IMG/VR virus record: IMGVR_UViG_3300004369_000751
Coordinates: 1-60,202 of that record
From: a virus
Taxonomy: Duplodnaviria > Caudoviricetes
Direction: 5' to 3' (one strand)
DNA: 60,202 nt
Shown: in pieces, positions 6,734 through 45,085 of the stretch
How the letters are laid out: each line of letters starts with the position of its first letter
Numbering within the stretch: the first letter of the stretch is position 1
Notes under the pieces: model-generated
Seen by the model: the letters and a program-made list of their open reading frames with translations, nothing else
Databases searched by the model: none
What the model was told of the DNA's origin: nothing
Position numbers and translations under genes: made by a program

Positions 6734-6760
6734 GTCTCTTCGAAGAGACTCTTTTTTTTT
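6732..6760 (+). terminator. Terminator formed by 20-bp palindrome copy 1 plus T9
   Basis: GAGTCTCTTCGAAGAGACTC followed by TTTTTTTTT, then -7 TAAATTTG at 6762-6769. Confidence 0.75.
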
Positions 6761-6788
6761 GTAAATTTGTAATCTAAAACCTTTTGAG

Positions 6789-21012: not shown

Positions 21013-21049
21013 AAGGTCGCAAATCGCGACCTTTTTTTTTGTACATTTG
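21013..21049 (+). terminator. Terminator abutting a -7 promoter element
   Basis: AAGGTCGC-loop-GCGACCTT plus T run, then TACATTTG at 21042-21049. Confidence 0.8.
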
Positions 21050-21080
21050 TGTTATTGTTTAACCCCCTTATTTTTTTATT

Positions 21081-21379: not shown

Positions 21380-21423
21380 AAAGGCACTCTCGTAAGGGGG
21401 TGCTTTTTTTTTGTCTATCTTTG
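21380..21423 (+). terminator. Terminator abutting a -7 promoter element
   Basis: AAGGCACTCTC-GTAA-GGGGGTGCTT plus T run, then TATCTTTG at 21416-21423. Confidence 0.8.
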
Positions 21424-22404: not shown

Positions 22405-23328
22405 ATGGCTTTTTTATCAGCATTTGAATACTACACCAACAATGGTAACGCCCCACAAGATAAGAATTGGGGTTCGTATCAGTACGTTAGCTTGAAGGAT
22501 ATTGTCAATAACTTTATGCTTATGTACTCGGGCAACAACTCTGTTATCAACAACGAGGAGCGGTACAAGGTTTTGTTCCATGCAAAGAGGGCTATCCAAG
22601 AGTTGAACTATGATGCGTTCAAAGAGATAAAAGCTCTTGAGTTGAATGTGTGCGATTCGCTTCGCTTTGTTCTTCCACACGATTATGTGAATTGGGTTAG
22701 GATTTCCTTGTATAAGGATGGGTACTTGCTCCCATTGACGGAGAACATTCAAATTAACTCAGCCAAAGCGTACTTGCAAGGCAACAACTGTGAGATTCTG
22801 TTTGACCAAAACGGAAACATATTGGAGCCACAGTACTCAACCATTGATAAGGATAGGCTTGATGGTGCACTGAAGAGCATTTACTTGAATCCCGGGAATC
22901 CATTCCATGGGCAAGAGGGTTGGTGTATAGATGGTTGTTGGTATTTTCAGTATGGCATTGGTGCCCGGTTTGGATTGAACACTGAGACTGCGAATAGGAA
23001 TCCAACCTTTACCATCGATAAGAAAGCCGGTGTGATAAACTTCAGCTCTGAGATGTCAGGCGAGTTGTGCATCCTTGAGTACATATCAGATGGCATGGAG
23101 GGGAATGACGATTCTCTTATTTCTGTAAACAAGCTGTTTGAGAAGTACGTGTACGCGTACATTTCTTTTGAGATTTTGAGCAACAAGGCCGGAGTTCAAG
23201 AGTACATTATTGCTCGGGCCCGAAAGGAGAAGTCGGCTTTGCTTCGTAACGCTAAGATTAGAATCAGCAACATTCACCCCGGAAGACTTCTTATGAATCT
23301 ACGTGGGCAAAATAAGTGGATAAAGTAA
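22405..23328 (+). CDS. Tail ring / structural protein
   Basis: LPHDYVNWVRISL...ILEYISDG; position before the nozzle gene. Confidence 0.65.
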   Translation: MAFLSAFEYYTNNGNAPQDKNWGSYQYVSLKDIVNNFMLMYSGNNSVINNEERYKVLFHAKRAIQELNYDAFKEIKALELNVCDSLRFVLPHDYVNWVRISLYKDGYLLPLTENIQINSAKAYLQGNNCEILFDQNGNILEPQYSTIDKDRLDGALKSIYLNPGNPFHGQEGWCIDGCWYFQYGIGARFGLNTETANRNPTFTIDKKAGVINFSSEMSGELCILEYISDGMEGNDDSLISVNKLFEKYVYAYISFEILSNKAGVQEYIIARARKEKSALLRNAKIRISNIHPGRLLMNLRGQNKWIK

Positions 23329-23329
23329 C

Positions 23330-26300: not shown

Positions 26301-28117
26301 CTATTGATACAACAACCGGAGACCACCTATCAGGAATCATGGTAGGAGATATGAATCAAGATATTGCCTTGGGTATCCCCGGGGTTGTGTATCCATCTTT
26401 CTTCAACTGCTTTACTTTTGGAAATGGTGCCGAGAGCTATCGGGTACGAGACTCTTTAAAGGGTCAACCATTCTTGTTGGGCAATCGCGTCACTGCGGTA
26501 TCTGCACAAGACTACAAGGAGGCACATCGATTTGCAGACATTACCTACAGCGGAATCTATAACGATGAGTCTAATGTCAATAAGCTAAACGAGTTTAACC
26601 TTGGTCTATTAAACTACAAGACGTTGGAGGATTCTTTTGGTCCCATTATGATATTGGATGGCCGGGAGACAGACGTGTTGGTTCTTCAAGAAGATAAGGT
26701 AAGCTACGTACTTGCCGGCAAGAACTTGCTGTCGGATGCTGCGGCCGGCGGTGCCATCACTTCGGTGCCCGAGGTGTTGGGCACTCAGATTGCAAGGATT
26801 GAAAAGAATGGCATCAGCTTCCATCCGGAGAGTTACGTTAAGTGGGGAGCCAATAAGTTCTTTACCGATGCCAAAAGGGGTGCTGTGATTCAGCTTTCGG
26901 GAGGCTCTTACAGCAATGAGCAGATGGGATTGATTTCATTGGCCGGTATGCGCTCATGGTTCCGGGACTTGTTCATCGATTCTATGTATACTCAAAAGCT
27001 CGGTGGTTATGACCCATACATGGATGAGTACGTGCTCAGCTCAAACGAAACGCCAATCCCAATAATTGATGATTGTATTGATTGCGGAATAACTCAGAAG
27101 TTCACGCTTCCGTTTCGTGGTGGTGGTGCAATACCATACTCGTACTGCGTAAACTTGGGGTTACCGATTGGCTCTGTTGATGTGGACTATACAATATCAA
27201 TAGTGAGTGGTGCGCCAACCGTCGACATATCTGCGACATTTGATGGAAGCACTGTATCGACAGGAGCTGTTAGCACTAATGGGACTCTGACGTTTTCAAA
27301 GTCAACGAATAACACCAACGGCACGATATCACTTCAGTATGGTGGTACCGGGATTATGATATTGGAAATTACTGTTCGTTGTCCCGAGTCAATACCATTG
27401 AACTTAGTTGAGGTATGCGTATCGGATAACGCCGATGCCGGAAAGTTTATTCACAATGAGTTCAGATACCAAAGTGGAGCGTACATCTCTCCGACTTCAT
27501 CAGACCTTGTGACTCTTGCTTCGGGATTTTCGTATCCATTGATTTCAAACTACGACCTTACTTCAGGGTTCCAAGGAACAGGGTATTTCCCGGTCAATGG
27601 CTCTACTGTTCGAATCATTTCAAACAAGATACTGTTCGACAACTACAACTTTGATAGCGTCAACAATAGGCTGATGTACTTTAGGACCAACGTGTTCTAT
27701 GCAAACAATCCTGTTGACATTCAGAACCTGCTGTTGGCCGCGACCAATGCCACTCCGCTTGTGAATGTGGGGTCGGCTTGGTATGCTGAGTTTATTATGC
27801 CGGGCGGTTCTCCCAATGATTATTTGTACCTGATATGGGACTACAGAACTCAGGTGTCTCAAGAGCTATGCTACTCATCTGTTAGTGCGGAGGATGCGTG
27901 TTGCGATTGTGAGCAGTGCGAAGAGCTATGTTCATCTTGGTCTGTTACAGCAGGGCCGACCGGTGCGTTGTTGGTCTACAACGACTGCTCAGAGGCTCAG
28001 TTCCCAACCATTGTTTATGTAGACCCCGAGGACACTATTATAATCTGTGCATCCAACGAACCTCAAATTATTGAGGGATTGGCAGAGATTAGCTTTGCTG
28101 ACTGCGGATGTGTATAA
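23330..28117 (+). CDS. Tail nozzle / stabilisation protein (N-terminal part) with a Cys-rich C-terminal extension
   Basis: GRMNKTVDERLIPEGEYIDALN, FAYRYRYEDGEYS, GNRLMYGNY, GGYDPYMDEY. Confidence 0.75.
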   Translation: MTNISRNFIAGRMNKTVDERLIPEGEYIDALNCRLGSSEKSEVGAVENTKGNIALTSLTYIDGTALSSQARCIGAYEDGANETLYWFVHDPAFTVGATGKLDMIVSYNTTTTALTYHVVSIDDGGGVNTTLNFNPIYLITGVNLVEVNPQGNFLLFFTDNYNPPRFINTGRTYAQPVANVDQFDDESILVIKRPPNQSPGLILQDTGGEENYMKDRFLCFAYRYRYEDGEYSAISMFSAPAFAPKQFNISPDSYLNVGMENLYNSVVVTYNTGGPLVKGIDLLYKDMESNVIRVIEKLDKAKLGFPDNTLQFYSFTNSKIFTVLTESEIFRLYDNVPRLAKAQTIMGNRLMYGNYVEGYDLIDLNGNEVRFDYYTDPVSTVIGQVELPTVRDFGLYDLPQSGTPNSFPNTKFTVDLSSVATKLKKGGVLRFELQVSHSSVPPFTFGWSPGTNPIPLGVNSFGVNFEFVLPKDYANVPALFASTEFKNAIGVASPPNFQPLSPVSLASNGKTFTDFYNAQLFNPLPSQSGNFSLLRSAIGVSGPIPTIGEPIPVGNPTTNKLDFKILFPLYRQGSNILTEEWEILKIDSAKAYFTPAFGERSLHSNRGYEVGIVYMDEFGRSSTALVSNNNTVFFDCGKSVNKNQIKVTIPTTQRAPSWATRYKFVLKPDKANYETIYSNLYFVDVPTNTLWALLEGENARKVESGDRLIVKADASGAKTSCAYVTILEKEAKAADFVAIPNQLDPSQDIPIPSGVYAKISTANPNLDVSQSQFKNISFGTKTVIQDNVNAVPVMDYTVNILDPTSGNYIDNPGGEPLITAGSRVILSFKFERKGPGNGGGACERRIYTLDQTYISTSDYPDFKAWFDGDNIDGYLDLGTKDVGDPTNNPPINNRYDATPYSSSTPNAQIICNGFGGCDFLSYNFYRFFRDSGNNRLALTMTGPPSCGWDNDTQSSITVSISILRAGGTLIFETEPVDASPDIFFENEFSYPIDTTTGDHLSGIMVGDMNQDIALGIPGVVYPSFFNCFTFGNGAESYRVRDSLKGQPFLLGNRVTAVSAQDYKEAHRFADITYSGIYNDESNVNKLNEFNLGLLNYKTLEDSFGPIMILDGRETDVLVLQEDKVSYVLAGKNLLSDAAAGGAITSVPEVLGTQIARIEKNGISFHPESYVKWGANKFFTDAKRGAVIQLSGGSYSNEQMGLISLAGMRSWFRDLFIDSMYTQKLGGYDPYMDEYVLSSNETPIPIIDDCIDCGITQKFTLPFRGGGAIPYSYCVNLGLPIGSVDVDYTISIVSGAPTVDISATFDGSTVSTGAVSTNGTLTFSKSTNNTNGTISLQYGGTGIMILEITVRCPESIPLNLVEVCVSDNADAGKFIHNEFRYQSGAYISPTSSDLVTLASGFSYPLISNYDLTSGFQGTGYFPVNGSTVRIISNKILFDNYNFDSVNNRLMYFRTNVFYANNPVDIQNLLLAATNATPLVNVGSAWYAEFIMPGGSPNDYLYLIWDYRTQVSQELCYSSVSAEDACCDCEQCEELCSSWSVTAGPTGALLVYNDCSEAQFPTIVYVDPEDTIIICASNEPQIIEGLAEISFADCGCV

Positions 28118-28138
28118 ATTCCTCTTGAAATGTAAGAT

Positions 28139-29824
28139 ATGGCAACATCATCACTTTACTATTTGAATTCTTCATCGTTTGCTTCTGCAACTGCTGTATT
28201 TACGGATTCTGCTCTTACCACCTTGGCACCGGATGGGTGGTTTTCATTCGGTGGTATCGTAAGGCAACAAATAGGGGGTGTGCTACAGCCGGCAATACCT
28301 TGCCCATCTTGCTTCATTGATTGTGATAATCAGTTGGCGCATTCGGGAGACGATGGCATCTACAATGTTACCTTCAACACAGGGTTTAATGTCGGTGCCA
28401 TCATCATTAGATTCAATCCCAATAATGTGCCGGATGGATTCTTGGCAACGTATGATGGGGTAGACTACAACGGACTTGTGTCTCCGGCGGATGGTTGGTT
28501 GCAAGGTGGCGTGGCCGGTGAACCATCGTACATTGGCAGAACGGCTGATGATTGTGGTATATCGGGGACTACGTATGTCCTTGACAACTATCGGTTCCAA
28601 GGGGGCAGCTTTATTTTCGATGGCACCACTCCGAGTGTCACTGTCAATCCGCTGTCTGTGGATACCACAGTTGGTAATCCCGGAAACTGCGTGATGGTGA
28701 TACCAAAGGTGAACGCATCTCCTTCTTCTTTGTACCTTCAGATTGTATCTCCTTGCCCATCCGGTGCTTTCACTGTTGAGGTTGAGTGCCCGGCTTTGTT
28801 GCAAGGGTTTGCCTCAAGCAATGTAAATGGCTCCTCTACTGCTGCGTGCAATGATATCTTGGACCAAACGTACTACGTTGCTCACGTCAATGGGTCGGGA
28901 GGACTTTTGCTATTATATGACTATGTGTTTGCTGATGCTTATGGTCAGACACCCTTGTCGGCAGGATTCTACAATGTTTCAGGGATGAGTCTCCTTTATG
29001 ATTGGATTCAAGTTGATGCCAATGGTGTTGTAATAGGATTTGGAAGCTGCTCATATGAGGACAACTATTTAGTTCGCAGGTGTGGAGATAATCTTGAGAT
29101 TGTTGTCTACTCTGCATCGGCTCTTACTCCCGGCCAACTGATAAGCGTGAACGAGGCTGTCTATGCCGGATGTAGATTTACAGTGGTTGGGCCACAAGCT
29201 ACTCAAGCCGATGCCACTTTTAATGCTGTTATTCCGGGCACTTGCGAGAATGTATGTGTGTATTGGGAAGCGACAAGCAACTTTGAGGTTGGGAATGTGA
29301 ACTTAAACTTTGTTGATTGCTTTGGTGTGCCACAGGTTTACTCCTTGGGCCCCGGCGAAACATACAACTTCTGTGCAAGGGCTACGAGCTACGTGTCTCC
29401 GGAGGGAGTAACGAGCGTTATTGATAGCTGTGAATGCCCTGCTATTTATTACTACCAAGTAACGCGTTGTGGAGATGGCCTTTCTGTCATTATTGATTCG
29501 ACTACAGTGTTGAATCCGGGGGATGTGGTTTCCATTACAGGATACTCAGGTTGCTACTTCGAGGTTGTATCATCTTCGGCCCTTGCTCCTACGGAGTCAT
29601 TTGTTTCTCTTGAGCCGACAACGTGCAGTGAGGTGTGTGTGCTGATGTCGTTTCAGAATGTGAGCGGTGTTCCATCCACAATTAGTTGGACCGGATGTGA
29701 TGACCTTCCTTACTCTTACACGCTATCTGATTCGCAGACCATATTACGCTGCGTTAAGGGTGGTGTTTACACTGCGCCCGGAGGAATTGTTGTAACTTTG
29801 TCAAACTGTAACTGCGGAGTATAA
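28139..29824 (+). CDS. Cys-rich repeat structural / receptor-binding candidate
   Basis: Repeated Y.V.RCGD...C.F.VV...TC..VCV...DC...C modules. Confidence 0.7.
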   Translation: MATSSLYYLNSSSFASATAVFTDSALTTLAPDGWFSFGGIVRQQIGGVLQPAIPCPSCFIDCDNQLAHSGDDGIYNVTFNTGFNVGAIIIRFNPNNVPDGFLATYDGVDYNGLVSPADGWLQGGVAGEPSYIGRTADDCGISGTTYVLDNYRFQGGSFIFDGTTPSVTVNPLSVDTTVGNPGNCVMVIPKVNASPSSLYLQIVSPCPSGAFTVEVECPALLQGFASSNVNGSSTAACNDILDQTYYVAHVNGSGGLLLLYDYVFADAYGQTPLSAGFYNVSGMSLLYDWIQVDANGVVIGFGSCSYEDNYLVRRCGDNLEIVVYSASALTPGQLISVNEAVYAGCRFTVVGPQATQADATFNAVIPGTCENVCVYWEATSNFEVGNVNLNFVDCFGVPQVYSLGPGETYNFCARATSYVSPEGVTSVIDSCECPAIYYYQVTRCGDGLSVIIDSTTVLNPGDVVSITGYSGCYFEVVSSSALAPTESFVSLEPTTCSEVCVLMSFQNVSGVPSTISWTGCDDLPYSYTLSDSQTILRCVKGGVYTAPGGIVVTLSNCNCGV

Positions 29825-30630
29825 TGCCTATCTACACTCTTTCATATGACCCCGGGGTACAAGGATGGCCATCCTTTTACTCGTTTGAGCCTGATTGGAT
29901 GATTGGGATGAACAACTATTTCTATACCTTCAAGGGTGGGAATCTGTACCGGCACAATGTAAACGCAGTAAGGAACAACTTCTATGGCGTTCAGTACACC
30001 TCAAAGATAAAGAGCGTGTTTAATGCTGAGGTGTTGAAGAACAAGCTGTTCAAGACCTTATCATTGCAAGGTGATGACAGTTGGTCTGCCGAGTTGGACA
30101 CCGACATTCAGGACACAGGCTTCATTCAGAAGTCTTGGTTTGAGAAGAAGGAGCAGACCTACTTTGCTTTTGTTCGCAACTCGGGAACCATACCGGCAAA
30201 CCCGGCTCAGAACTATCCCTTGCGGTCTTTAAATGGTATTGGTAGGAGCGTTACTGTTTCGGGGCCTCCCGGGGCTACGGTGATATCGTTCTCGATTAAC
30301 CCATTGATTTCTATTGGAGGAATCATAAGCATTGGTGATGCTTTGTACTTTGCTTTGCCTCCCACGTACTCAACTCCGTTGTTGGCCGGTGAGGTTACTG
30401 CTGTTAATGTAGACCTTCCAAACGGAATCAATCAGATTGTTATTGACACCACGATACCGGGGACCACGCCGATTGGTATTCAGGACCCATACTTCTTGTT
30501 CATTAAGAATGCTGTGGCTGAGTCCCATGGTGTGTTGGGTCATTACTGCATATTTACTCTTGAGAACAACTCCACTTTTGCTGTAGAATTGTTTCAAGCG
30601 GAGAGTGATATTATGTTCAGCTATCCATAA
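29824..30630 (+). CDS. Nozzle / stabilisation protein C-terminal-like part
   Basis: TLSY...GWPSFYSFEPDWMIGMNNYFYTFKGGNLYRHN...KLFKTLSL...KKEQTYFA. Confidence 0.65.
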   Translation: MPIYTLSYDPGVQGWPSFYSFEPDWMIGMNNYFYTFKGGNLYRHNVNAVRNNFYGVQYTSKIKSVFNAEVLKNKLFKTLSLQGDDSWSAELDTDIQDTGFIQKSWFEKKEQTYFAFVRNSGTIPANPAQNYPLRSLNGIGRSVTVSGPPGATVISFSINPLISIGGIISIGDALYFALPPTYSTPLLAGEVTAVNVDLPNGINQIVIDTTIPGTTPIGIQDPYFLFIKNAVAESHGVLGHYCIFTLENNSTFAVELFQAESDIMFSYP

Positions 30631-33670: not shown

Positions 33671-36600
33671 ATGGATGAACAGGTGCTACAGGACCTTTAT
33701 GCAAGGGCCCAATCATTAGGATACAAAAAAGGAATAGAAGACTTTCGTACTCTAATCCAAACAGACCCAAGTGTACAAGACGATAACTTCGCCTACGTAC
33801 AAAGCAGAGGGTACAAGAAAACCAAAGAAGAATTCTTGGGCCTATTGGGGATGAACCAATCCACAAGCACCATCCCATTAAAAAAAAAAGAGTCAGCCCC
33901 AAGTACGGAATCGTTATCGGGCGATGGTTCATTGGGGCAATCTTTGCCGGAGATTACAAAGAAGACTCTCAGTAAAATTGGCATAGAGCCACAGCCACAA
34001 TCAAAGCCAAAAGAAGACCCACTTCGGTTTAACCAAATGCCCCCTCAAATGCAAGTTGAGGAGGCTTTCAAAATCATACAAGGGAAAGGATACCAAGGCA
34101 CAAAGGAAGACTTCATTGCCGAGTATGGAATCCAAGTCCCCCAAACCCAAGAAGAGGAGTACAAGAACAAGGACATCTTTGCTCAGAATATCCGGAATGC
34201 CTACAGCAGTGCACTTCGATACTCTCCTCAAAAGAAGGAGGTGGTTGCTCCGGCCAAGGCTGAGCCAACACTCATGGAGCAAACCAAAGAACAGTTTGCC
34301 GAGCAGTTCCCCAAGACCATAGAGCGAATAAAGAAAGCACCCGAAGAGGCCGAGCGAGATAAGGGATTCTTAGAGACTGTTAAGAAGGGTGAACGTGAGG
34401 CTGAGTTAGCTCAGATTCAGACCAACGACCAAGACGAAGAGTTTTTGCGTTTGGTATCCGGGGTTGACAACCTGTACATAAAAGGAGCTTCAGAGGAGAG
34501 AGCAGAAAGGGAGCTAAACGAAAGATTCAAGAAGTACGGAATAGTGTTTGCCCAATCTAAGGCAGGCCGAGACGTGCTGATTGCTCGCACAGCAGATGGG
34601 AAGAAGAGCATTGAGGTGCCCCTTGCAGCGTCAACTTCTGACTACAACTCAAAAAGACTCAGAGACTTTATCATACAGAACGGAAAGGCTCAGACTGAGT
34701 CCATGTCTGAGGACTTTATTACTAAGTCATTGCGTGCACAGAATATGCGCCGCGTTGGTAGGCTCAACAAGGATGGCAGTGCATCAACTGTAGAGTTTAT
34801 GTCCTTTGAGCAGGACGGCAAGTTCCTTGTGGCTCCAACCCTATTCCCAAAGGACAAGCTCAACTACGGCGCAGACCCGAGAGGATGGATGAAGTTGGAG
34901 CCGGCAAAAGCAATTGAAGAGGCCCGGGCAAGAGGTGAGCTGTTTGAGTTTAAAACCAAGGCCGAGGCAGAACGATTTGCAGAAGGTGCTTGGAAGGATG
35001 TAACCATGTCAGATTTAGAGGGGCAGAAGTTCTTCCAAGAGCGTGGCTTAGACTACTTTGATTACAAGAACAGAAGGGACGAGATGTTGTCTATCGACAA
35101 GGAGCAGGCCCTGATTGAGAATGTGAGTGGTGCCATTAAGAGAGGTGAAATCACAAACGCGAAGCAGTACTTTTCAAAGAAACTTTCACCGGAGGAGGCC
35201 ATCAAGTACTCCTACCTTTTGAATGGTAACAACCTTCGCCCCGACTTGGAGTCATACGTTCAGAAACGTCAGCAACAAAAGAACGAGCTTTATACCCAAG
35301 TGGAGGACCGCACTTTCTTTAACGATGGGAAGGTTCAAACAACATTTGAGGACTTCGATGTTTACCTTAACAAGAAGTCTGAGGAGTCAAAGAAAAAGGC
35401 TGAAGAAGCGAACAAGATAGCAAAGGAGAAGTACGAAGAGCTGAACGCCGTATCAATGGAGGCTTTTGGTGTTCCGGCAGCACAGCTTATGACCTACAAG
35501 CCGAAGACTCAAGATGAGGTGAACGTGATAAACGACATCAAGCAAAGGATGTCAGCCCTTGTTGACCTACAAAAAGTAGCTGCTGAAAGGTACTACGCTT
35601 CATCTACGTTCTTTGATTCCAAGCTAAACAAGGCTGCTCGCAACGAGTACGATGAGAACATGTCCGCTTGGTGGAGCGAGTTTAATTCTGCTTGGGCCCG
35701 AGGTGAGGCCGGGGCACAGTTGATGAAGACAATCATGGGCGTGAACTCTGTTGAAGAGGCAGGTCAGTTGATTTCAGAGGCTATGCAAGATGCAGAGGGT
35801 GGCACTCGTAGCCGAGCTTTCCAAACTTTTATGTCTGCCGGTGCTTTATCTGAAGATGATGAAAGAGCTGCAAGGGCTTTTTGGTCTGACCCATTTGAGA
35901 TATTAACAAACTTAGTGGCTACGAGTTTTGCTCAGCTTCTTCCTATAGGGTTTAGGATTGTGCCTGCTACAACCGTTGCCGGTGGTCTCACAGGTGCCGG
36001 AATTTCTGCCGCAACAACAGGCGGTTTTGGAACTTTCGGAGGTGCAGTTTCAGGGTTAAAGTATGGTTTTCAAACGGGTATGGAAATGGCGAACTTTGCC
36101 ATGGAGTACACCAACTCATTCTTTGAGGCAGCTCAAGAAAGAGGGTATGACGTGAAGGACCCCGAACAGTTTGTCAAGGCTTACGCTGACGATGCAGTTT
36201 GGAATGAGACCAACAACATTGGTATTCGAAGGGGATTGGCTATTGGTGGAGTTGGATTGATGTCGAGCAGTCTTGCCGGCAAGGTGTTTAAGGTTAGCAA
36301 ACTCGCATCCAAGGCTCAGAAGGTAGGAACATTCGTTGCGGAGCGTGCTGTTTTTGACCCCTTAATGGAGGGTGCCGGAGAGCTGTTAGCTCAAGAGTGG
36401 TCTACCGGAACGTATGACCTAAAGGAGATTGAGGGTGAGATGATGGGTGGTATTGGCAACAATGCCATCTCTGCCGGATTTAACATAGCTACATCGGCAT
36501 TAAAGAACACCAACATTGATTATGCGAACACGCTTACTGACATCTCTGCTGTTGCTGAGGAGTCTGCGAGTGATGAGCGCATATCAAATTGGGCTGCGAA

Positions 36601-39600
36601 TATGCGGAGGCTTGGTCAGATTGATGCTGAGACTGAGCAGAGGATTCAGAGGAATGTTGGATTGAGAAGGGAGTCCAAGGACTTGTTGTCTGTTGGTGAC
36701 AATGGAAAGATAGCTTCAAAGGATTCCAAGCTACAAGCAAGGATGATGGAGCTGATGGCTGCACGCGATGAGATGTCATCTACGGACAACCGTCGTGAGG
36801 TGTACCGAAACTACATAGCTCAGGTGAACGAGGAGCTGAGGGAGATTGCAGAGACCAAGAAACTCCGGGCCCCGGAGAATGCTGTGAACCTTTCTACCAT
36901 GAATGCTCCTACGTCAGCACCCGGCATACCTAAGTACAGCATCAATGGTCGCTCTATGACCAAGGCAAACTTTATGGATGCCGTTGGAAAGATGTCGAAG
37001 TCAAGGTTTATGCGTTCTCGCATTGTTGTTGACAATGATGAGGCTACCACCGGTGAGCTGAACCAAAAACTTATAGACAAAGGATTCATAACTAAACCAA
37101 AGACAGATGCCATTCAAGAGCAAAGCGCAGCGCAGGTATCTCCACAAGTTTCAGCCGCAGTTGGCGAAGGAGTGGGAGAGCAAGTACCCGGTCAAGAAGA
37201 AGTTGCCGGAGAAGTTGAACAAGAGCGTCTCCTCGAAGAGACGCAACAGCAAGTAGAGCAAAGTCGTGGTAGGCTGAGTGAGTTAGAGGCTGCTATTCCG
37301 GCGGCTATGGAGGTTACTCCGGAGGTTCTTGTTCAGGCAACCAACAATGAGTTGGCACCCGAGCAGTTGGATGGGGTGTTGTCCTCTATTGCTGACGATA
37401 TCATATCTGAGACTGAGCTAAGTCCTGAGCAGGACGCGTTGGTATCTGCGAACAAGGCCCGGGTTGATGAGTTGGTTTCATTGAAGTCTGAGCAGGAGGC
37501 GTTGAGCTCCGAGGTCAATGACTTGGAAACTATGCTGAGTCAAAGTGGTGGGTTTCAGTTCCGGGCCGGGGATGGTGTTAAAACCACAAGGGATGCAGCT
37601 TGGGATTCTAAGACTAAGGAGGAGCTTCCGGCTTCGAGCTTTGAGAGTGACGAGGCTTTTCAATCTACTATTCGCGATGGTCAGTGGGGTATGCTTACTG
37701 CGGAGAATCCTGATGCAACACAAGTATCTGATGCGGAGAATAAACAAGTAAATGAGCGTGCGGAGGAGTGGTTACGTAGCCGGGGATACAATCCTCAGCG
37801 AATCTTTGGGAAGTATGGCAACTCTGAGAACAGCTTTTTTGTTGAGGGGTTAAGCACAGAGGATGCTGTTGAGTTTGCCCGGGAGTTTTCTCAAGAGAGC
37901 GTAGCTACGGATAAGGGTCTTGTGTATCAAGATGGCAAGATGAATCCAAGGCAGAAGGGTCAAGAGACTTTTGCTCCGGCAGATGATTTTTACAGCACGA
38001 TTAAGATTGGTGACAAGCTGTCTGACTTCTCTGTATCGTATGACTTTGATGAAAAAACAGAGAGCGGAGTTAAGCCTGCTCCAAAGAAAGAAGGGAAAAC
38101 CGCTGTTGAGGGGGAGATTACTTTATATCATTCTACGCCAAGTAATTTTACTGAATTTAGAGTTATTGGGGAGAATGACGGAAAGACAGAATCTCAGTAT
38201 ACAGAACTTGGTATACACTTAGGAACTGAGGAGCAAGCTAAAAAAAGAGCCGAAACAAAGAGAATACCAAAAGAAAAACAAAGAATAATAAAAGTTAAAA
38301 TCAATCCTAAAAAAGTAATAAGAGTTACTGATAAGGGGAGGTGGACTTTATCTACATACAAAAACATACTTTTTGAGTTAGGCTTAATACAAGATAAAAA
38401 AGAAATCAAATCTTTTGAAGATGTTTTAGCGGTTCTAAAAGACAATAATATTGATGCCTTTGTTTACGATAATAAGTATGAAGGTAAAGGGGATTCTTAT
38501 ATTGTTTTTGATAATAAAAATATAGAAATAGAGCAATCCACCGGGGAGAATCCCTTGCAAGATGTGGAGAGTACAACTAAGGCGTTGGAGGGCGTGGATA
38601 CAACCATTATTGAAAAACCTTTTGGTGTAATGTATCATGGTACTGCAAGTCAATTTGATTTACCAAGCAAAAAAGAAATTGGAAAAGGTATAGGAGTATC
38701 AAAATTTGGAGAAGGATTTTACGTAACAACATCTAAAGAATCTGTAGATAAATATTATGGGTTAATAGCAGCCGCAAACTCAGCATTTCAAGATTTATAT
38801 CCTGATTCAGCTTCAATGTCAAACGCAAAAGAAACAAATTCATTTTTTAATCTGCAAATGCTTTATGATGCGTTACTTATTGATGGCACAAAAGAATCTG
38901 CATTAAAATCAGTAAAGAATAATCTTTCAGGGAAAAAAGCTGAAGCTGCTATAAAGTTAATTAACAATACATTTGATAAATTAAAAGTAAAAAAATTCAC
39001 ATTAAATAACGATAATATTGTAGATTTTGACCAACCCATTGCAGGGTCAAAATTTGATAGTGTTATTGATGAAAAGGATAGACCGGAAACATTTGGTGAA
39101 TTATTTGAAGATTTAGTAGAAGGAAACATAATACAAAATTATTTCGGTGAATATAAAAAAGGGTTTGATGAAAAAAGTGCAATAAGAAAAGCAACAAAAA
39201 TTTTAAAAGGTTATGGAATAGATGGGCTATCGTACAATACTAAAAAAGTAATCAATGAAGAATTAAAACTACCATATGATGTAAAAGGGGAAAAAGATTA
39301 CGTTATTTTTAATACCTCTGTTTTAAAACCATTTACCAATAAAAACATCGCCCAAGCCTACCACAAAGCCAAGGCAGACAATTCAAACCCTGAATTAGTA
39401 AAGGCGGTAGAAAGTTTATTTGGTGCTCCAAAGTCCGGGCCTCAGACACGCATTGACACAAAGTTAGAGCAGGTCCAAGAGATTGATGAGAATGCTGAGC
39501 TCGAAAGAATCGTTGGTGAAATGAATGAGTTGGATAGTCCACTCGTAGACACATCTGCCCAAATTGAATCAACAGAAGGTGCTTCAACAGATGTTCAAGA

Positions 39601-42600
39601 ACTAAACAGCAGGCTTGATACCCCACTCGATGTGGTAAACATTCAAATTCTTGATGGGGTACCGGTGCTTGTCACAATCTCAGACCAACTTGTAGCATCC
39701 AATGATGGTGTTACAGACAATGTCACAGGCACAGAGATTACCAACCTTTTCGGTGGCTTAGGATTCAACGGAATTAAAAAGTTCCTTAAGGCAGCTTGGG
39801 CAAATGTAAATGAAGATGAGGCCAAAAATCAGCACAAAAAAGCTACTGAAATATACGAAAACAATAAAGCAATCATTGAAAAGTTTTGGGCAGACAACCC
39901 CAAGTACGATGGGCACGTACCCATGTTGGTTGTAAAAATGGGGGAGAACTCAATACTTTCAAACGAGGCCGTATCAAGAGTGCTTATTGAAAGGATTAAG
40001 TCTTTAAATCTTTCAGAAGATACAAAGAAAGAAGCATTTTCAAATTTGCAAAAGAGGTTAGACAAATTTGTAGAAAACTACAAAAAAGAAAAGGCGGCTG
40101 TAGATAGAAAAAATGCAAAATTAAAAGAAGGTGAAAAGAAAAAAGCAATAAGTGCAAGCACAAAGAACCCTTATTCTTTAGCTAAGTTCATTAGTGAAAA
40201 TAACATAAAGGATTTTGATGGTGTTTTAAATAGCATAGCTCAAATGCCTATTTCTGCAAGAGGGGTTATTAATAAACTATTAACATCAGGTTCAGTTAGA
40301 AAGCCCGGGCAAAAGCCAAAAAACCCCGGGGGGCCCGGTAAAGATAGTATAGCAAAGATACTTCTTGGAGACAACAAAAATAATTCTTTACTGAGCATAC
40401 AATCTATAACTGATGTATTAACAGAGCCATCGACATCTAATGTTCCAATTGGAAGTGTTATATCTGTGGTGGGTGTTAAGGTTGCAGAGAAGCAAGCCGA
40501 TGGAACATATAAAGCGGCCGGTCGTGCCATAAAAGTTGGCCATCCAAACTATGAGTATGGAGCCGAGGGAATGTCTTTTGGTGTTGTAAAAAACCCTATG
40601 ACACTCCAAAGCATAATGCCTGCCGCATATGATGCTGTAGTATCAAAAAACATTGAGAAGGTAAAAGAAAAAAAGAAACCTATTGGTACTTCAACAGCCA
40701 TGGGTATTGGCCAAGGATTGAAGGGCTTAGTAGGAAGAACCATCAGCACCAACCCTCCCAAGATGATGGCCTTGATATCACTTATCAATAAGGCTTTCCC
40801 AAATGTTTCAGTGTACACCACAACAGAAGCATTCAACCGGATACTTCAAAACACCGACACAAAGTTGACGATGAAAGGAGACGCAGTTCTCTATGGAGTC
40901 ACAGCCAACGGTGATATCTACATCAACCCCGAGGTACACAAAACAGAGTCTGAGCTGTTCAACACAATCATCCACGAGTTCGGGCACGTTTGGCTTAATA
41001 TGCTTTTGACTTCTCCTGAAGGAAGCAAAGAGAGAAAGCTGTACCAACAAGGGATAAACATCATAAGAGAAGGAATCAAGACCGACCCGAAATTAAAGGC
41101 TCTCTACGATAGTCAGATGAAGTTGTTCAACAACAACGAAGCTGATGCCATCAACGAGATGTTGGCAATCTTGATTGGTAACCGGGGAGAGATGATATCA
41201 AAGGCGAGCATCAGAACCAAGTTCAATGACTTCTTGCTTGCGATGTGGGAGTACGTCCGCGCTACATTCAAGATGTCCAAGGACATTAGCGTAGATGAAA
41301 TCTCTAACATGAGCCTTGATGATTTCTTGGGCACAGCCATGGCAGACCTACTCAGTGGCGAGGATATGAAGATATCCGATGCTCAGCTCACAAAGATGAG
41401 GAACCTAACCTCTATGGCTCGCCAAGATGACTCAATGCAGAGCATCATTGACTTGGGCCGGGAGAACGGATTCTCAGACCAATCCATCAAAGAGATTCTA
41501 ATGCGTCGTGGCTTTAAAGCTGCCGACATCGATACGGCCATGGAGGTCCGCGTAGACCTAATGACCGAACTACCCGATGCGTTTGCCAACGTAGAAGGTG
41601 GCGTGAAGGAAGGTATGAAGCTATTCGCTGACGTGCGCCAACAGCTCAGCAAGTATGCCAAGAAGAAGGTGAAGGAGGCCGATGGCACCACTCGTACTCG
41701 GACCATGTCAGAGATACGTCAGAAAGCCTTAGAGCTTCTCAAGGAGCACCCAATATTCAAGGCCCAAGCAAACATAACGAAAGATGAACTCATCTTGGCT
41801 TTCGATAGGTCAATGTCAACCCGGGCGAACAGAGGTGTCGATGCTCAGATTGCAGAGATAAGGAAGGGCCTGAAATCAAAGAAGATGGGCGTGAAGGAGT
41901 TGGCTGCTGCTCAGAAGAAACTCATTGACTTTGTATCAAGCGTGCTCCCTCAATCTAAGGGATATAGCACAGCAAGGATTGAGCGTATAGTTCGATTGAT
42001 TGGAAGCACAAACATAAACAACTTCGATGCTCAAGCCGAGCGCGTGATGAAGATTGTTGAGGCTCAGAAGGATTTGATGGCCAAGAAAGATATTGCTGAC
42101 GCTGTTGCAAGACAAAGGCAAGAGATGCGCGACCGCCGGGCCGGACAAAAAGACCTTCGTTCTTTTCAGATTACACTGAAGAACTTCATCAGAACCAATC
42201 TGCCAAAGTCCAAAGGCTATAGCCAACTTATGGTGAACCGATTGGTTGCTGCTGTAGCAAACACCACAACACAAAATTACGCAGCACAAGCTGTAAAGGT
42301 TCTGAATGTAGTTGAAAAGCAGCGCAAACTGATGTCCAACCAAAGGATAAGGGAGATTGCAAATGTGATAGTCAAGTCATCTAAGATAGCCAAGACCGGC
42401 TCAAACAAACGTAGGGCCGGCCGGGTGGATGCAGACACTCAGGCTTTGTTTGCAACAATGAAGCAGACCATGAGGGCATTGGCAATGGCTAAGAAGGGTG
42501 ACTCATCTATGCTTGACAGGATTTCAGCATCTGTTGACCCTGCGATATTGGCCGGCAAGGGCATTGACCTTGATGAAGTACAACAGAAAATAGACAACGG

Positions 42601-45085
42601 AGAGGAGCTCACCGCGGCAGAACGCGATGCGTTCAACACAACTGTCGCACTCCAAGAGTTGGGCGGTATCTTCTCTATGTCTCTTGAGGAGTTGGACTCT
42701 CTATTGGAGAGAACAAAGGAGATGGCAACAGAGGGAATCGCACGACTAAAGGCAGACAAACTTGTCTTGAGTGCTGAGATATCTTCATTGAAGCAGCAGG
42801 CAGAGGCTCAGATAAAATCTGACTTTGGATTCTTGTACGATGAGAACGGAGACCTGAAGAGTAAGAACAGGCTTGACTCTGAGTTCCGGCAGATATGGGA
42901 GAACTTCCGCAAGCTAAAGGTTTGGGAAGGTATCAAGGGTTGGGTTAAGACAATCGACTTCCAATCTCTCACCGGATTCCAAGACTTTATGCGGAAGAAA
43001 ATATACCACCTTGGTACGCTGATGAACGTGTTGGACAAGGGTGGTGACTTCTTCAAGAAGAACGTATACGACGTTCTCAATAGAATGGATGAGAAGAGTA
43101 AGCGCGGATTCCAAATGGAGATGGCGAACTTAGACTCTTTCGCACGTTCTTTTGGATTCAAGAACTACAAGCAGTTTGCTCGTAGCTTGAACGGACCTCC
43201 GGCTAATGTCAACGGAAAGCTACTCACCATCGACCAAATGATGAGAATCTATGCCCTAAGCAAGAACCCAATACAGAGGAACAAGCTGATTGATATGGGC
43301 ATTGACATCGACAGTGTTGAGTCATTCCTTACAGATGAGCAAAGGGGATTCGCTGACATGGTTGTTGACTACCTATCCAACAGCTACTTCGATGGCGTTA
43401 ACAGCATCTACTCTTATGTAAACAATGTCAACCTTGGATACGTAGAAAACTACTTCCCAACCAAGACAATTCAAACTAAGATTGATGGGAACATCTTGGA
43501 GTCCGGAGACTTCGGCTCTGTGTTTAATGCGGAGACAGCACCTGCACTAAAGGAGCGTACTGATACTAAGGGAGAGATTGACTTGTCATCAGACTTTACT
43601 GCTGTTCTTGAGAATCACTTCCGGTCGATGGAAAGGTACAAGGCCATGGCCATTGGTGTTCGCAAGATGGTTCAGATTTTTAAGATGGAGGATGTCAAGA
43701 CTTTGCTTGAGCGCACCGGAACCAAGGACATGATTATGCGCGGTCTTAACTTCGCTATCAACCCCGACTCCATGACCCGGGAACCAACGACCATTGTCGG
43801 GAAGCTGTCATCCAAGTTCACCGGATTTGCTCTTTCTTTCAAGGCCATTCAAATTCTGAAGCAAGGCTCCTCTTTTGTTCAAGCATTTGAGGATTACACC
43901 GTAAGGAAGGGCAAGCCAACACCGGTATTGGACCACATAATGTTCATGCTTGACATGGCTTACATTGTTGCCACACTTCCAAAGCAGATTAAAAAGGCTT
44001 ACGATATGTCGGCCAATGTAAAGGACCGTCTCGACCAAGGATTGGAGGGGGATGTGTATGGACTTGAGTCCGGCACCGGAGTGTTCCGGCCAATATCAAA
44101 GTCATCAAGTGCATGGGCAAAAGCAAGGAGGGCTTTCAAAACCGGAGCCGCAGCACCTACTGTCCTTGGTGATATCATTGGTGTGCTTGGATACATGGCT
44201 GTGTACAACAGAATGATAAAGCAAGGCTTCACTCACGCTGAGGCGTTGGAGGCATTCAACAACTACAACTCTACGCAGCAGTCTCGCCGGGCAACTGAGA
44301 AGTCACCAATACAGATGAGCAACAATGAGTTTCAAAGGTTGTTCACAATGTTTGGAAGCACAGTGTTCTTGCAGATGAACAAGATTGCTCAGACATCAAC
44401 CAACATCATGCGTAGTGCCAAGAAAGGCAAGATGCCAAAAGCAAAGGATGTACGAGGGTTAATGTTGAACCTTGCCATCGCAAACGTGTTGTTCGTTGGT
44501 GCTGCTAACATTGCCAAGTTTATATACGGTGATGATGAGGATGAGGAAGAGGCTTTGAAAGCCATGCGTAATGCGATGCTTGGTCTCAATGTGATTTACG
44601 CTATACCCATCTTTGGTTCTGCTATTGAATCAATGGTTGCGTATGCTGAGGGTGAGCCTGACAGGGCTGATGACACCATCAATGTGTTTCAGAATCTATT
44701 CAGAAAGTATAAGAAAGCTGAAGAGGGATTGGATGATGGTAATGTTTGGGCTGCGGTACAGCCTTTAGTTGAGATTGTTATTGGAGCTCAGCTCGACCCA
44801 TTCATTGGTATCTACAACTACTTTGGCGGAGACGAGGATATGCAAGAGGATGCGGCTTACGATATGCTTGGAATCACTCCATCGTACAGGCCAAGCAATG
44901 ATGAGAAGCCTGTATCAACTATGGGCAAGGAGGACATGAAGCGTTACTTCCCTGAACTTTACGATGAGGTATACGGACCAAACTCCCCGGGGTATGACAT
45001 TCAGCAAGAGATAAAGGAGATGGAGAAAGAGATTGAGAAGGAGCAGCAACAGTTAAAGGATGAAGCCTACGGCTACTCTGAGTAG
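33671..45085 (+). CDS. Giant (3804 aa) polyvalent ejected protein with DUF3293-like, two ART-PolyVal-like and zincin (HEFGH) domains
   Basis: WGMLTAENP...GKYGNSENSFFV; LYHST...GIHLGT...DAFVY.N..EG..SYIVFD; MYHGT...FGEGFYVT...IDGLSY...YVIFN; IIHEFGH...INEMLA. Confidence 0.85.
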   Translation: MDEQVLQDLYARAQSLGYKKGIEDFRTLIQTDPSVQDDNFAYVQSRGYKKTKEEFLGLLGMNQSTSTIPLKKKESAPSTESLSGDGSLGQSLPEITKKTLSKIGIEPQPQSKPKEDPLRFNQMPPQMQVEEAFKIIQGKGYQGTKEDFIAEYGIQVPQTQEEEYKNKDIFAQNIRNAYSSALRYSPQKKEVVAPAKAEPTLMEQTKEQFAEQFPKTIERIKKAPEEAERDKGFLETVKKGEREAELAQIQTNDQDEEFLRLVSGVDNLYIKGASEERAERELNERFKKYGIVFAQSKAGRDVLIARTADGKKSIEVPLAASTSDYNSKRLRDFIIQNGKAQTESMSEDFITKSLRAQNMRRVGRLNKDGSASTVEFMSFEQDGKFLVAPTLFPKDKLNYGADPRGWMKLEPAKAIEEARARGELFEFKTKAEAERFAEGAWKDVTMSDLEGQKFFQERGLDYFDYKNRRDEMLSIDKEQALIENVSGAIKRGEITNAKQYFSKKLSPEEAIKYSYLLNGNNLRPDLESYVQKRQQQKNELYTQVEDRTFFNDGKVQTTFEDFDVYLNKKSEESKKKAEEANKIAKEKYEELNAVSMEAFGVPAAQLMTYKPKTQDEVNVINDIKQRMSALVDLQKVAAERYYASSTFFDSKLNKAARNEYDENMSAWWSEFNSAWARGEAGAQLMKTIMGVNSVEEAGQLISEAMQDAEGGTRSRAFQTFMSAGALSEDDERAARAFWSDPFEILTNLVATSFAQLLPIGFRIVPATTVAGGLTGAGISAATTGGFGTFGGAVSGLKYGFQTGMEMANFAMEYTNSFFEAAQERGYDVKDPEQFVKAYADDAVWNETNNIGIRRGLAIGGVGLMSSSLAGKVFKVSKLASKAQKVGTFVAERAVFDPLMEGAGELLAQEWSTGTYDLKEIEGEMMGGIGNNAISAGFNIATSALKNTNIDYANTLTDISAVAEESASDERISNWAANMRRLGQIDAETEQRIQRNVGLRRESKDLLSVGDNGKIASKDSKLQARMMELMAARDEMSSTDNRREVYRNYIAQVNEELREIAETKKLRAPENAVNLSTMNAPTSAPGIPKYSINGRSMTKANFMDAVGKMSKSRFMRSRIVVDNDEATTGELNQKLIDKGFITKPKTDAIQEQSAAQVSPQVSAAVGEGVGEQVPGQEEVAGEVEQERLLEETQQQVEQSRGRLSELEAAIPAAMEVTPEVLVQATNNELAPEQLDGVLSSIADDIISETELSPEQDALVSANKARVDELVSLKSEQEALSSEVNDLETMLSQSGGFQFRAGDGVKTTRDAAWDSKTKEELPASSFESDEAFQSTIRDGQWGMLTAENPDATQVSDAENKQVNERAEEWLRSRGYNPQRIFGKYGNSENSFFVEGLSTEDAVEFAREFSQESVATDKGLVYQDGKMNPRQKGQETFAPADDFYSTIKIGDKLSDFSVSYDFDEKTESGVKPAPKKEGKTAVEGEITLYHSTPSNFTEFRVIGENDGKTESQYTELGIHLGTEEQAKKRAETKRIPKEKQRIIKVKINPKKVIRVTDKGRWTLSTYKNILFELGLIQDKKEIKSFEDVLAVLKDNNIDAFVYDNKYEGKGDSYIVFDNKNIEIEQSTGENPLQDVESTTKALEGVDTTIIEKPFGVMYHGTASQFDLPSKKEIGKGIGVSKFGEGFYVTTSKESVDKYYGLIAAANSAFQDLYPDSASMSNAKETNSFFNLQMLYDALLIDGTKESALKSVKNNLSGKKAEAAIKLINNTFDKLKVKKFTLNNDNIVDFDQPIAGSKFDSVIDEKDRPETFGELFEDLVEGNIIQNYFGEYKKGFDEKSAIRKATKILKGYGIDGLSYNTKKVINEELKLPYDVKGEKDYVIFNTSVLKPFTNKNIAQAYHKAKADNSNPELVKAVESLFGAPKSGPQTRIDTKLEQVQEIDENAELERIVGEMNELDSPLVDTSAQIESTEGASTDVQELNSRLDTPLDVVNIQILDGVPVLVTISDQLVASNDGVTDNVTGTEITNLFGGLGFNGIKKFLKAAWANVNEDEAKNQHKKATEIYENNKAIIEKFWADNPKYDGHVPMLVVKMGENSILSNEAVSRVLIERIKSLNLSEDTKKEAFSNLQKRLDKFVENYKKEKAAVDRKNAKLKEGEKKKAISASTKNPYSLAKFISENNIKDFDGVLNSIAQMPISARGVINKLLTSGSVRKPGQKPKNPGGPGKDSIAKILLGDNKNNSLLSIQSITDVLTEPSTSNVPIGSVISVVGVKVAEKQADGTYKAAGRAIKVGHPNYEYGAEGMSFGVVKNPMTLQSIMPAAYDAVVSKNIEKVKEKKKPIGTSTAMGIGQGLKGLVGRTISTNPPKMMALISLINKAFPNVSVYTTTEAFNRILQNTDTKLTMKGDAVLYGVTANGDIYINPEVHKTESELFNTIIHEFGHVWLNMLLTSPEGSKERKLYQQGINIIREGIKTDPKLKALYDSQMKLFNNNEADAINEMLAILIGNRGEMISKASIRTKFNDFLLAMWEYVRATFKMSKDISVDEISNMSLDDFLGTAMADLLSGEDMKISDAQLTKMRNLTSMARQDDSMQSIIDLGRENGFSDQSIKEILMRRGFKAADIDTAMEVRVDLMTELPDAFANVEGGVKEGMKLFADVRQQLSKYAKKKVKEADGTTRTRTMSEIRQKALELLKEHPIFKAQANITKDELILAFDRSMSTRANRGVDAQIAEIRKGLKSKKMGVKELAAAQKKLIDFVSSVLPQSKGYSTARIERIVRLIGSTNINNFDAQAERVMKIVEAQKDLMAKKDIADAVARQRQEMRDRRAGQKDLRSFQITLKNFIRTNLPKSKGYSQLMVNRLVAAVANTTTQNYAAQAVKVLNVVEKQRKLMSNQRIREIANVIVKSSKIAKTGSNKRRAGRVDADTQALFATMKQTMRALAMAKKGDSSMLDRISASVDPAILAGKGIDLDEVQQKIDNGEELTAAERDAFNTTVALQELGGIFSMSLEELDSLLERTKEMATEGIARLKADKLVLSAEISSLKQQAEAQIKSDFGFLYDENGDLKSKNRLDSEFRQIWENFRKLKVWEGIKGWVKTIDFQSLTGFQDFMRKKIYHLGTLMNVLDKGGDFFKKNVYDVLNRMDEKSKRGFQMEMANLDSFARSFGFKNYKQFARSLNGPPANVNGKLLTIDQMMRIYALSKNPIQRNKLIDMGIDIDSVESFLTDEQRGFADMVVDYLSNSYFDGVNSIYSYVNNVNLGYVENYFPTKTIQTKIDGNILESGDFGSVFNAETAPALKERTDTKGEIDLSSDFTAVLENHFRSMERYKAMAIGVRKMVQIFKMEDVKTLLERTGTKDMIMRGLNFAINPDSMTREPTTIVGKLSSKFTGFALSFKAIQILKQGSSFVQAFEDYTVRKGKPTPVLDHIMFMLDMAYIVATLPKQIKKAYDMSANVKDRLDQGLEGDVYGLESGTGVFRPISKSSSAWAKARRAFKTGAAAPTVLGDIIGVLGYMAVYNRMIKQGFTHAEALEAFNNYNSTQQSRRATEKSPIQMSNNEFQRLFTMFGSTVFLQMNKIAQTSTNIMRSAKKGKMPKAKDVRGLMLNLAIANVLFVGAANIAKFIYGDDEDEEEALKAMRNAMLGLNVIYAIPIFGSAIESMVAYAEGEPDRADDTINVFQNLFRKYKKAEEGLDDGNVWAAVQPLVEIVIGAQLDPFIGIYNYFGGDEDMQEDAAYDMLGITPSYRPSNDEKPVSTMGKEDMKRYFPELYDEVYGPNSPGYDIQQEIKEMEKEIEKEQQQLKDEAYGYSE
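33883..33938 (+). promoter_or_regulatory. Candidate -1 programmed frameshift signal
   Basis: In-frame A_AAA_AAA, 6-nt spacer, stem GCCCCAA/TTGGGGC. Confidence 0.5.
37107..37256 (+). CDS. Nested 49-aa basic protein in the +1 frame of the giant gene
   Basis: MPFKSKAQRRYLHKFQPQLAKEWESKYPVKKKLPEKLNKSVSSKRRNSK with an A-rich TIR. Confidence 0.65.
   Translation: MPFKSKAQRRYLHKFQPQLAKEWESKYPVKKKLPEKLNKSVSSKRRNSK
37225..37244. repeat. 20-bp palindrome copy 3 (in doubly coding sequence)
   Basis: GCGTCTCCTCGAAGAGACGC. Confidence 0.9.

Follow-up and report, generated by a model that had tools for sequence, protein, structure and literature searches.

A probable programmed -1 recoding site at an A10 run in the giant virion-protein gene of a phage grouping with flavobacterial podophages

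Introduction

Why does a run of ten adenines stand 70 codons into the 3804-amino-acid (aa) open reading frame (ORF) of a giant virion-protein gene, directly before a stem-loop and a short open -1 frame? The question is raised by the IMG/VR virus record IMGVR_UViG_3300004369_000751 (Duplodnaviria; Caudoviricetes), whose 60,202 nucleotides (nt), analysed in full and called the window here, are a complete phage genome of 60.2 kb in one contig. An earlier note, made from the letters alone, had described the locus as a textbook -1 frameshift cassette, and the A10 run, heptamer, spacer, stem-loop, -1 ORF and stop codon that it listed are all in place (Table 1). Our comparative analysis indicates, with high confidence, that programmed -1 recoding genuinely takes place at the A10 run in this phage; that confidence is the sum of what we assign to slippage of RNA polymerase and to slippage of the ribosome, which are weighed against each other in the Discussion.

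Results

Selection on the -1 frame

The A10 run contains two overlapping A_AAA_AAA heptamers (33880-33886 and 33883-33889), both slippery sequences of the X_XXY_YYZ type in zero-frame register, and as a coding-strand A/T run of about 9 or more it is also of the length associated with transcriptional slippage. It is separated from the stem-loop by the 6-nt spacer GAGTCA, and it is the sole homopolymer of at least 9 nt within any window ORF of at least 120 aa; the five other runs of at least 9 nt (at 361, 5146, 6752, 21032 and 21404) all lie outside such ORFs. A -1 shift at the run would join 73 codons to 28 to give a product of 101 aa, and the stretch of the giant protein that the -1 ORF overlaps is a linker of poor conservation. 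From its upstream stop, 96 nt before the run, as far as the run itself, the -1 frame of the window contains no ATG, GTG or TTG, and this interval was free of start codons in 12 of the 13 lineages examined. Because the -1 frame has no start codon, it could be entered only from the N-terminal frame by shifting. In many loci, moreover, the -1 frame opens just a few codons before the slip site.

Searches of IMG/VR with the first 400 aa returned two relatives, one with 91% identity (L001, the same contig as L003) and one with 64% (L002). The sequence ccattaaaaaaaaaagagtca is unchanged to the letter in both, and A10 is present in L001/L003 and in L002 as well. In the N-terminal region upstream of the run, the window and L002 differ by 55 substitutions, distributed 13/9/33 over zero-frame codon positions 1/2/3, which by this measure is a normal coding pattern. 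In the 84-nt overlap the 14 substitutions are distributed 1/11/2, so that 11 of them hit the second position of a zero-frame codon, equivalent to the third position in the -1 frame. Counted by hand, 11 of the 13 changes preceding the stop are at third positions, for which a binomial test gave P = 2e-4. Within the overlap the two sequences are identical at 25/28 residues in the -1 frame, at 16/28 in the zero frame and at 17/27 in the +1 frame. Contigs from three further DNA studies, 95-99% alike, span the A10 run with no indel; they carry about 22 variant sites in the 170 nt upstream of the overlap and two within it (33891 A>G and 33900 C>A), both silent in the -1 frame and both changing the zero frame. 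The same bias was seen in 16 non-overlapping pairs of related loci, where substitutions in the overlap numbered 45/28/75 at -1 codon positions 1/2/3. The -1 frame thus has the properties of a conserved, translated ORF without initiation of its own, and the shift that the earlier note had proposed, to a product of about 101 aa with a hydrophobic and aromatic tail, appears to be used, and the product is under purifying selection.

The -1 tail in a large phage group

The tail encoded by the -1 frame belongs to a family with the consensus R-Y-G-[IF]-x-I-G-[RK]-W-F-I-G-[IAV]-[TS]-[RK]. IMG/VR was scanned with a degenerate DNA pattern for G[IF]xIG.WF[IV]G in which no A run was specified, and 92 matches were obtained, where a rough estimate of our own puts chance matches at a handful. 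In 90 of the 92 the motif lies near the end of a short ORF that is -1 within a long ORF, 45-120 codons past the upstream zero-frame stop of that long ORF, which reaches more than 3000 aa where contigs permit. The arrangement proposed for the window is in this way kept in homologues throughout a large phage group. Positions that the pattern did not force are conserved as well: Y precedes the first G in 59 of 78 sequences and R precedes that Y in 52 of 78, and the motif is followed by a hydrophobic residue, then T/S, then R/K. A stop comes 3-19 codons past the motif (median 5), and the whole product has a median length of about 91 aa. All 78 N-terminal stretches that were extracted by script start with ATG in frame with the long ORF.

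Some matches were set aside. Three of the six matches to a first, narrower pattern (L005, L008 and L009) stand in unrelated contexts and were taken as chance, and so were L026 and L068, found with the second pattern. Two of the former, L008 at 1365-1387 and L009 at 6069-6091, are unrelated GC-richer viral contigs with short in-frame ORFs ending ...SIGRWFIGAIQGD... and ...QGRWFIGAIKPQ...; these ends carry an extra likeness to the tail motif. The tail of the window (33889-33972, -1 frame) also matched phrog_23454, a family of 55 positions and unknown function, weakly (E 0.0078), and this family may consist of gene calls made in the same -1 frame of other phages.

In every flavobacterial podophage relative that we opened, a long A run stands 33-73 codons into the large virion-protein gene, and after it comes a short aromatic and Gly-rich peptide in the -1 frame relative to the body of that gene. 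The run is A11 in MW202828, A10 in phi38:1 and Gundel_1, A10 in a different register in elemoA, and A9 in the deposited genomes of phi19:3, phi18:3, phi46:3, phi13:2 and Panino. Other searches added little. With the site region and the first 400 aa as queries, blastn and tblastn found no match in a phage collection; a scan of genome contigs found no relative, and a scan of metagenomes found the L001 contig again and nothing else. A search for shorter proteins returned a single one, a zero-frame fragment ended by a contig edge, and a natural fusion joining N-terminal module and tail in one frame was nowhere encountered.

Slip-site classes and downstream helices

We then classified the slip sites in 82 distinct 100-nt contexts, the window included, seeking the site between the upstream stop of the -1 frame and the motif. 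A10 was found in 42 contexts and A9 in 2. Short motifs comprised G_GGA_AAG (12 contexts), xxA_AAG (14), A_AAA_AAG (3), the A7 form of A_AAA_AAA (2), the set G_GGA_AAA, G_GGA_AAC and G_GGA_AAT (3) and other heptamers (2), and two contexts (L029 and L031) had no recognised site. As a control we used 86,536 zero-frame codons farther down the same ORFs, to be compared with 2,081 codons in the stretches examined. GGGAAAG in register was absent from the control codons and present in 12 contexts within the 2,081, and runs of A9 or longer occurred twice in the control. In contrast, generic X_XXY_YYZ sites (764 in the control) and A_AAG sites (857) would be expected about 18 and 21 times in the codons examined, and neither class was enriched by count.

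Downstream helices, defined as at least 6 contiguous pairs starting at +6 to +8 past the site, separate the two classes of site. A helix at this canonical spacing was predicted at 25 of the 36 short-motif sites, compared with 3 of the 44 A-run sites and 27 of 1035 control windows (2.6%). A conserved or covarying stimulatory structure 5-9 nt downstream was accordingly found in the short-motif class and not in the A-run class. Among the 22 helices that start exactly at +7, several pair types occur at most positions (at pair 4, for instance, AT 4, GC 8, TA 7 and CG 3); as these helices are predictions made sequence by sequence, the weight of the comparison rests on the control rate and not on the pairing. 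One of the two A7 sites (L063) keeps a helix at +6, and the call of the other (L081), just 5 nt ahead of the motif, may be wrong.

The A-run class is uniform in other respects. The run is in every case preceded by a codon with A at its wobble position (TTA 18, GTA 13, GGA 4, ATA 2, CGA 2, TCA 1, GAA 2, AAA 2), whichever amino acid is encoded; 40 of the 44 runs begin at codon position 3 and so form perfect A_AAA_AAA heptamers, and a run of A7 or A8 was never seen in the class lacking a helix. N-terminal modules of the window's type occur with either type of site, six loci (L087, L049, L092, L044, L072 and L102) having a short motif; since the same type of module is found with both, the type of site must have changed within homologous genes.

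Two side observations concern these loci. In short-motif loci (e.g. L069, L077, L092 and L095) the -1 peptide before the motif is rich in Cys (e.g. LCKCGSSCGV), and this stretch shares its nucleotides with the arms of the stimulatory helix; rather than a metal-binding site under selection, the cysteines may be a side effect of the RNA structure. In addition, the match of phi13:2 (L022) to phi19:3 (L016) begins at the A run, and more such pairs were found (L024/L038, L047/L053, L059/L083, L036/L106, L062/L087, L069/L077, L075/L102 and L082/L084). Within each pair the overlap and tail are near-identical, and the 108 nt upstream differ about as much as unrelated sequence. It looks, from these alignments, like an exchange of N-terminal modules exactly at the slip site, with the slip site serving as recombination joint.

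The hairpin of the window

The stem-loop downstream of the run is stable by prediction: RNAfold gave -17.4 kcal/mol for 33896-33938, with a z-score of -2.76 and 3 of 200 shuffles as stable. Only three A-run contexts, among them the window, have a canonically spaced helix. In L001 six stem pairs persist because the register slides by one base; a C.A mismatch interrupts the stem of L002, which folds differently, and in one strain contig 33900 C>A weakens the stem with the partner base unchanged. No compensatory stem changes were seen in the clade of the window. As all the changes in the stem arms are silent in the -1 frame, the sequence seems to be kept for the peptide and not for the stem, and the hairpin of the window is probably incidental. 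The textbook role that the earlier note had assigned to it is not borne out, helices in the A-run class being about as rare as in control windows and the stem being broken in L002. What that note had expected homologues to share therefore holds for the A run, which is kept as A10, and fails for the hairpin, which homologues lack.

The giant gene, its N-terminal module and its surroundings

Coordinates are collected in Table 1. Upstream of the giant gene lie terminase, portal and structural genes, identified by PHROGs on the neighbours, and homologues of the giant protein in cultured relatives are annotated as virion structural protein. Searches with the terminase placed the phage of the window with flavobacterial podophages; its podovirus status is taken from the records of these relatives. 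Residues 1342-1411 of the giant protein match DUF3293 (Pfam, E 3.8e-10), a HExxH string (IIHEFGHVW) lies near residue 2430 and the C-terminal part is hydrophobic, a composition that we take to be reminiscent of the multi-domain 'polyvalent' virion proteins of phages.

Table 1. Features of the recoding locus, in coordinates of the window
Feature	Coordinates	Strand	Description
Giant virion-protein gene	33671..45085	+	From ORF list and translation; 3804 aa; zero frame
N-terminal module	33671..33889	+	73 aa, present in both the giant protein and the short product
A10 slip site	33880..33889	+	Zero frame TTA AAA AAA AAA GAG TCA; frame change -1
-1 frame ORF	33889..33975	+	28 codons RVSPKYGIVIGRWFIGAIFAGDYKEDSQ and TAA at 33973-33975
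Stem-loop	33896..33938	+	Outer stem GCCCCAA (33896-33902)/TTGGGGC (33932-33938); inner stem ATCGTT/GGCGAT
Tail motif core YGIVIGRWFIG	33904..33936	+	Conserved across the family

The N-terminal module is helical-looking and consists of two repeats in tandem, each about 30 aa long, of the type L..LY..A.S.GY.K..EDF..LI. An alignment of 19 homologues gave a profile that resembles a designed PPR helical repeat (E 3.8e-8). PHROGs held no family for the giant protein or the N-terminal module, and Pfam gave no family for N-terminal modules, just scattered weak matches; neither matched the module to a chaperone. Rfam returned nothing (sraA at E 2.9).

Elsewhere in the window, intergenic T9 runs followed by GTAAATTTGT or GTACATTTGT occur at 6752-6770, at 21032-21050 and also at 21404-21412, after genes ending at 6733 and 20987. 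These runs could be terminator tails or, possibly, promoter elements of the Bacteroidota type.

Discussion

For the A10 variant we favour slippage of RNA polymerase on the run over -1 slippage of the ribosome, giving it about an even chance of being correct. Most expression would be straight read-through to the 3804-aa virion protein. In some transcripts the polymerase would add one extra A, and ordinary translation of the resulting A11 mRNA would run ...LKKK-RVSPKYGIV..., such that a fraction of synthesis would enter the -1 frame and end in a 101-aa protein made of the 73-aa repeat module and the 28-aa tail with RYG[IF]xIG[RK]WFIG. The comparisons show selection on the -1 frame, its want of a start codon and the conservation of run and tail; the stage of expression at which the frame changes, and how often it does so, are inferred. 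Polymerase slippage would not require the downstream hairpin, and we count the scarcity of helices in the A-run class, the fixed length of its runs (A10 in 42 of 44) and its constant wobble A in favour of a mechanism that depends on length and not on a hairpin. In MW202828 (A11) and elemoA (A10) the run stands in another register, which would suit a site kept for its length rather than its register; yet 40 of 44 runs share one register, which may reflect common descent. The sections on slippage in PMC1088944 describe A/T runs of about 9 or longer as prone to transcriptional slippage in many bacteria, and there and in the corresponding part of PMC5009743 the RNA-DNA hybrid is put at 9-10 bp; the earlier note's remark on long A runs was apt. 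For dnaX these sources report an A9 run in Thermus that yields about 50% truncated product and, in E. coli, A_AAA_AAG, at which the shift is ribosomal (PMC1088944, PMC5009743). DNA contigs spanning the site are uniformly A10. A contig from an RNA library (depth 2, one study) ends at 33879, just before the run, and was set aside as evidence.

Several points weigh against polymerase slippage. As many as 36 of the 82 contexts are of ribosomal type, with short slippery motif, 6-nt spacer and helix, which makes ribosomal shifting the demonstrated habit of this family. The same single register that may be inherited places 40 of 44 A runs in perfect heptamers, and the helix of the window stands at exactly the 6-nt spacing of the ribosomal class. 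Finally, many of the contexts share ancestry, so that the counts are not independent; at 70% similarity the contexts form about 56 clusters, of which 28 are A10.

The same 101-aa product would result from ribosomal -1 frameshifting or sliding on A_AAA_AAA(_AAA), aided by the stem-loop or not, and to this we give a substantial probability, though one clearly short of even. The window offers two heptamers in register, a 6-nt spacer and a stable stem, and the six short-motif loci that share its type of N-terminal module use G_GGA_AAG or A_AAG with a helix 6 nt downstream. The several pair types per position among the helices at +7 and the confinement of in-register GGGAAAG to the contexts speak for ribosomal shifting in the family, and GGGAAAG is listed as the slip site of lambda G/GT (PMC3296357, Table 1). 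Iterated AAA and AAG codons are furthermore reported, in the part of PMC4363877 concerned, to affect translation differently, ribosomes sliding on A stretches. Against these points stands the loss of the helix in the A-run class, to a frequency near the control rate, a loss for which a second heptamer alone would hardly compensate. The substitutions in the stem arms (the C.A mismatch of L002 and 33900 C>A) follow silence in the -1 frame and not pairing, and in E. coli A_AAA_AAA is a poor site, far less shift-prone on ribosomes than A_AAA_AAG, as a section of PMC5009743 states.

A change at the level of DNA is very improbable as the explanation, be it a true A9 or A11 with a split gene, mistaken through an assembly error, or a hypermutable run acting as a phase-variation switch. 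It draws on the phi19:3, phi18:3, phi46:3 and phi13:2 group and Panino, which are deposited as A9 and in which a small gene of its own, not in frame with the giant body, has been annotated for the N-terminal module, and on 8 of 68 elemo records that match the site in two places, the 7 listed opening with the first or second A of the run. However, A10 is found in the window, in L001/L003, in L002, in the contigs of three more studies and in 42 of the 44 A-run contexts from IMG/VR, with all 78 extracted N-terminal stretches started by ATG and in frame; 60 of the 68 elemo records cover the site, the full-length rows listed being 100% identical, A10 included. A DNA switch would, besides, deprive single infections of the giant structural protein. 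Both 454 and Nanopore sequencing miscount long homopolymers, and the phi19:3 group was, we assume, sequenced by 454. Panino was sequenced by Nanopore alone, according to the methods given in PMC11590407. We suspect that A9 in the phi19:3 group and in Panino is a homopolymer miscount, a real variant arrangement being less likely.

In the A9 genomes the giant coding sequence is begun at an internal TTG or GTG; the coding sequences concerned are 24056-24364 and 24376-29991 in phi19:3 (L016) and 23229-28718 in Panino (L015). If A9 is a miscount, the coding-sequence annotations of the phi19:3 group and of Panino need merging. We had considered these genomes as support for polymerase slippage and dropped them, Panino being Nanopore-only and no extracted IMG/VR context having that arrangement. 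In elemoA (L014) the A10 run is at 16733-16742, and many elemo records begin about 90 nt upstream of it; a breaking point of elemo assemblies seems to lie at the run or close by.

That there is no recoding at all, the run, hairpin and short -1 ORF being coincidental or the -1 peptide being independently initiated, is highly unlikely: a 28-codon open frame and one A10 per 60 kb are not rare by themselves, and generic X_XXY_YYZ and A_AAG sites occur at background rate in these AT-rich genes, but the substitution pattern and amino-acid conservation of the -1 frame, its want of a start codon, its opening a few codons before the slip site in many loci and the recurrence of the arrangement in 90 of 92 motif matches already contradict coincidence.

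Put together, and with polymerase slippage retained for the A10 variant, these observations suggest that one gene family has moved to and fro, in the course of evolution, between ribosome and polymerase to make the same transframe protein, a joint proposal that we advance tentatively, at a little under an even chance. Its ribosomal machine would be G_GGA_AAG or A_AAG, a 6-nt spacer and a helix that varies between lineages; its polymerase machine would be A10 without helix, with the window as a polymerase-slippage member. The invariant tail RYG[IF]xIG[RK]WFIG would mark an undescribed small factor of virion assembly or ejection that a large group of aquatic podophages of Bacteroidota shares, and the N-terminal modules of this factor would recombine exactly at the slip site. 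The short protein may be a free copy of the N-terminal module with a basic and aromatic C-terminal anchor; we infer a role in virion assembly or ejection because of the place of the gene and because the module is shared with a virion protein. The recoding site could then set the ratio of short to giant protein in assembly or ejection.

With such a site, a widespread protein of about 90-100 aa, so far missing from annotations, would join the proteome of a major aquatic group of flavobacterial phages. We found no report of this recoding site in the literature searched, subscription papers and supplements (e.g. the original Cellulophaga phage genome and proteome paper) being outside our reach, and the terms frameshift, slippage and homopolymer are not mentioned in two flavophage papers searched for them. 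Within one gene family, G_GGA_AAG with helix, A_AAA_AAG with helix, A7 with helix and A10 without helix form a natural series that could reveal where ribosomal frameshifting yields to polymerase slippage. Cultured members (phi38:1, elemo phages and Gundel_1) make the question directly testable, and raw RNA reads of phi38:1 infection exist (PMC5335546).

The arrangement can be compared with known recoding systems. Like the potyvirus P3N-PIPO, as described in parts of PMC5009743 and PMC4552492, it is a short conserved overlapping ORF without a start of its own; that ORF was found by its codon-position conservation and is reached by polymerase slippage at a short run (GA6). P3N-PIPO differs in belonging to an RNA virus with a viral RNA-dependent RNA polymerase, in encoding an unrelated protein and in its much shorter run. 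The orfA-orfB genes of insertion sequence (IS) elements and Shigella spa13/mxiE (A9/T9) resemble our locus in that a coding homopolymer of at least 9 gives access to another frame, on the accounts in sections of PMC1088944 and PMC5009743; those cases fuse or extend ORFs, whereas the outcome here is a short conserved tail.

The lambda G/GT system is likewise a case of -1 shifting conserved within a structural module of phages, G_GGA_AAG being the site in many relatives (PMC3296357, in part), and its products share their N-terminal part, their fixed ratio being thought important in the passage of PMC5009743 devoted to them. However, shifting in lambda adds T to G, ahead of the gene for the tape measure in long-tailed phages, whereas the shift described here lies inside a giant gene, truncates, and occurs in podoviruses, with no sequence relation between the two. 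The site is not that of a lambda-type chaperone pair of overlapping ORFs before a tape-measure gene.

As in the window, the zero frame of dnaX in E. coli and Thermus thermophilus encodes the long product, and shifting leads to a truncated one with the same N-terminus (PMC5009743 and PMC1088944, in the sections on this gene), which ends soon after the shift. The protein is unrelated, and the shift in our family occurs 32-97 codons from the ATG (73 in the window) and not near the 3' end; its -1 tail, of 16-61 aa, has a strongly conserved motif of its own and overlaps a linker of the long protein. The two also have in common the use, by homologous genes, of either a short heptamer with stem-loop, as in E. 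coli, or a long A run, as in the A9 of Thermus.

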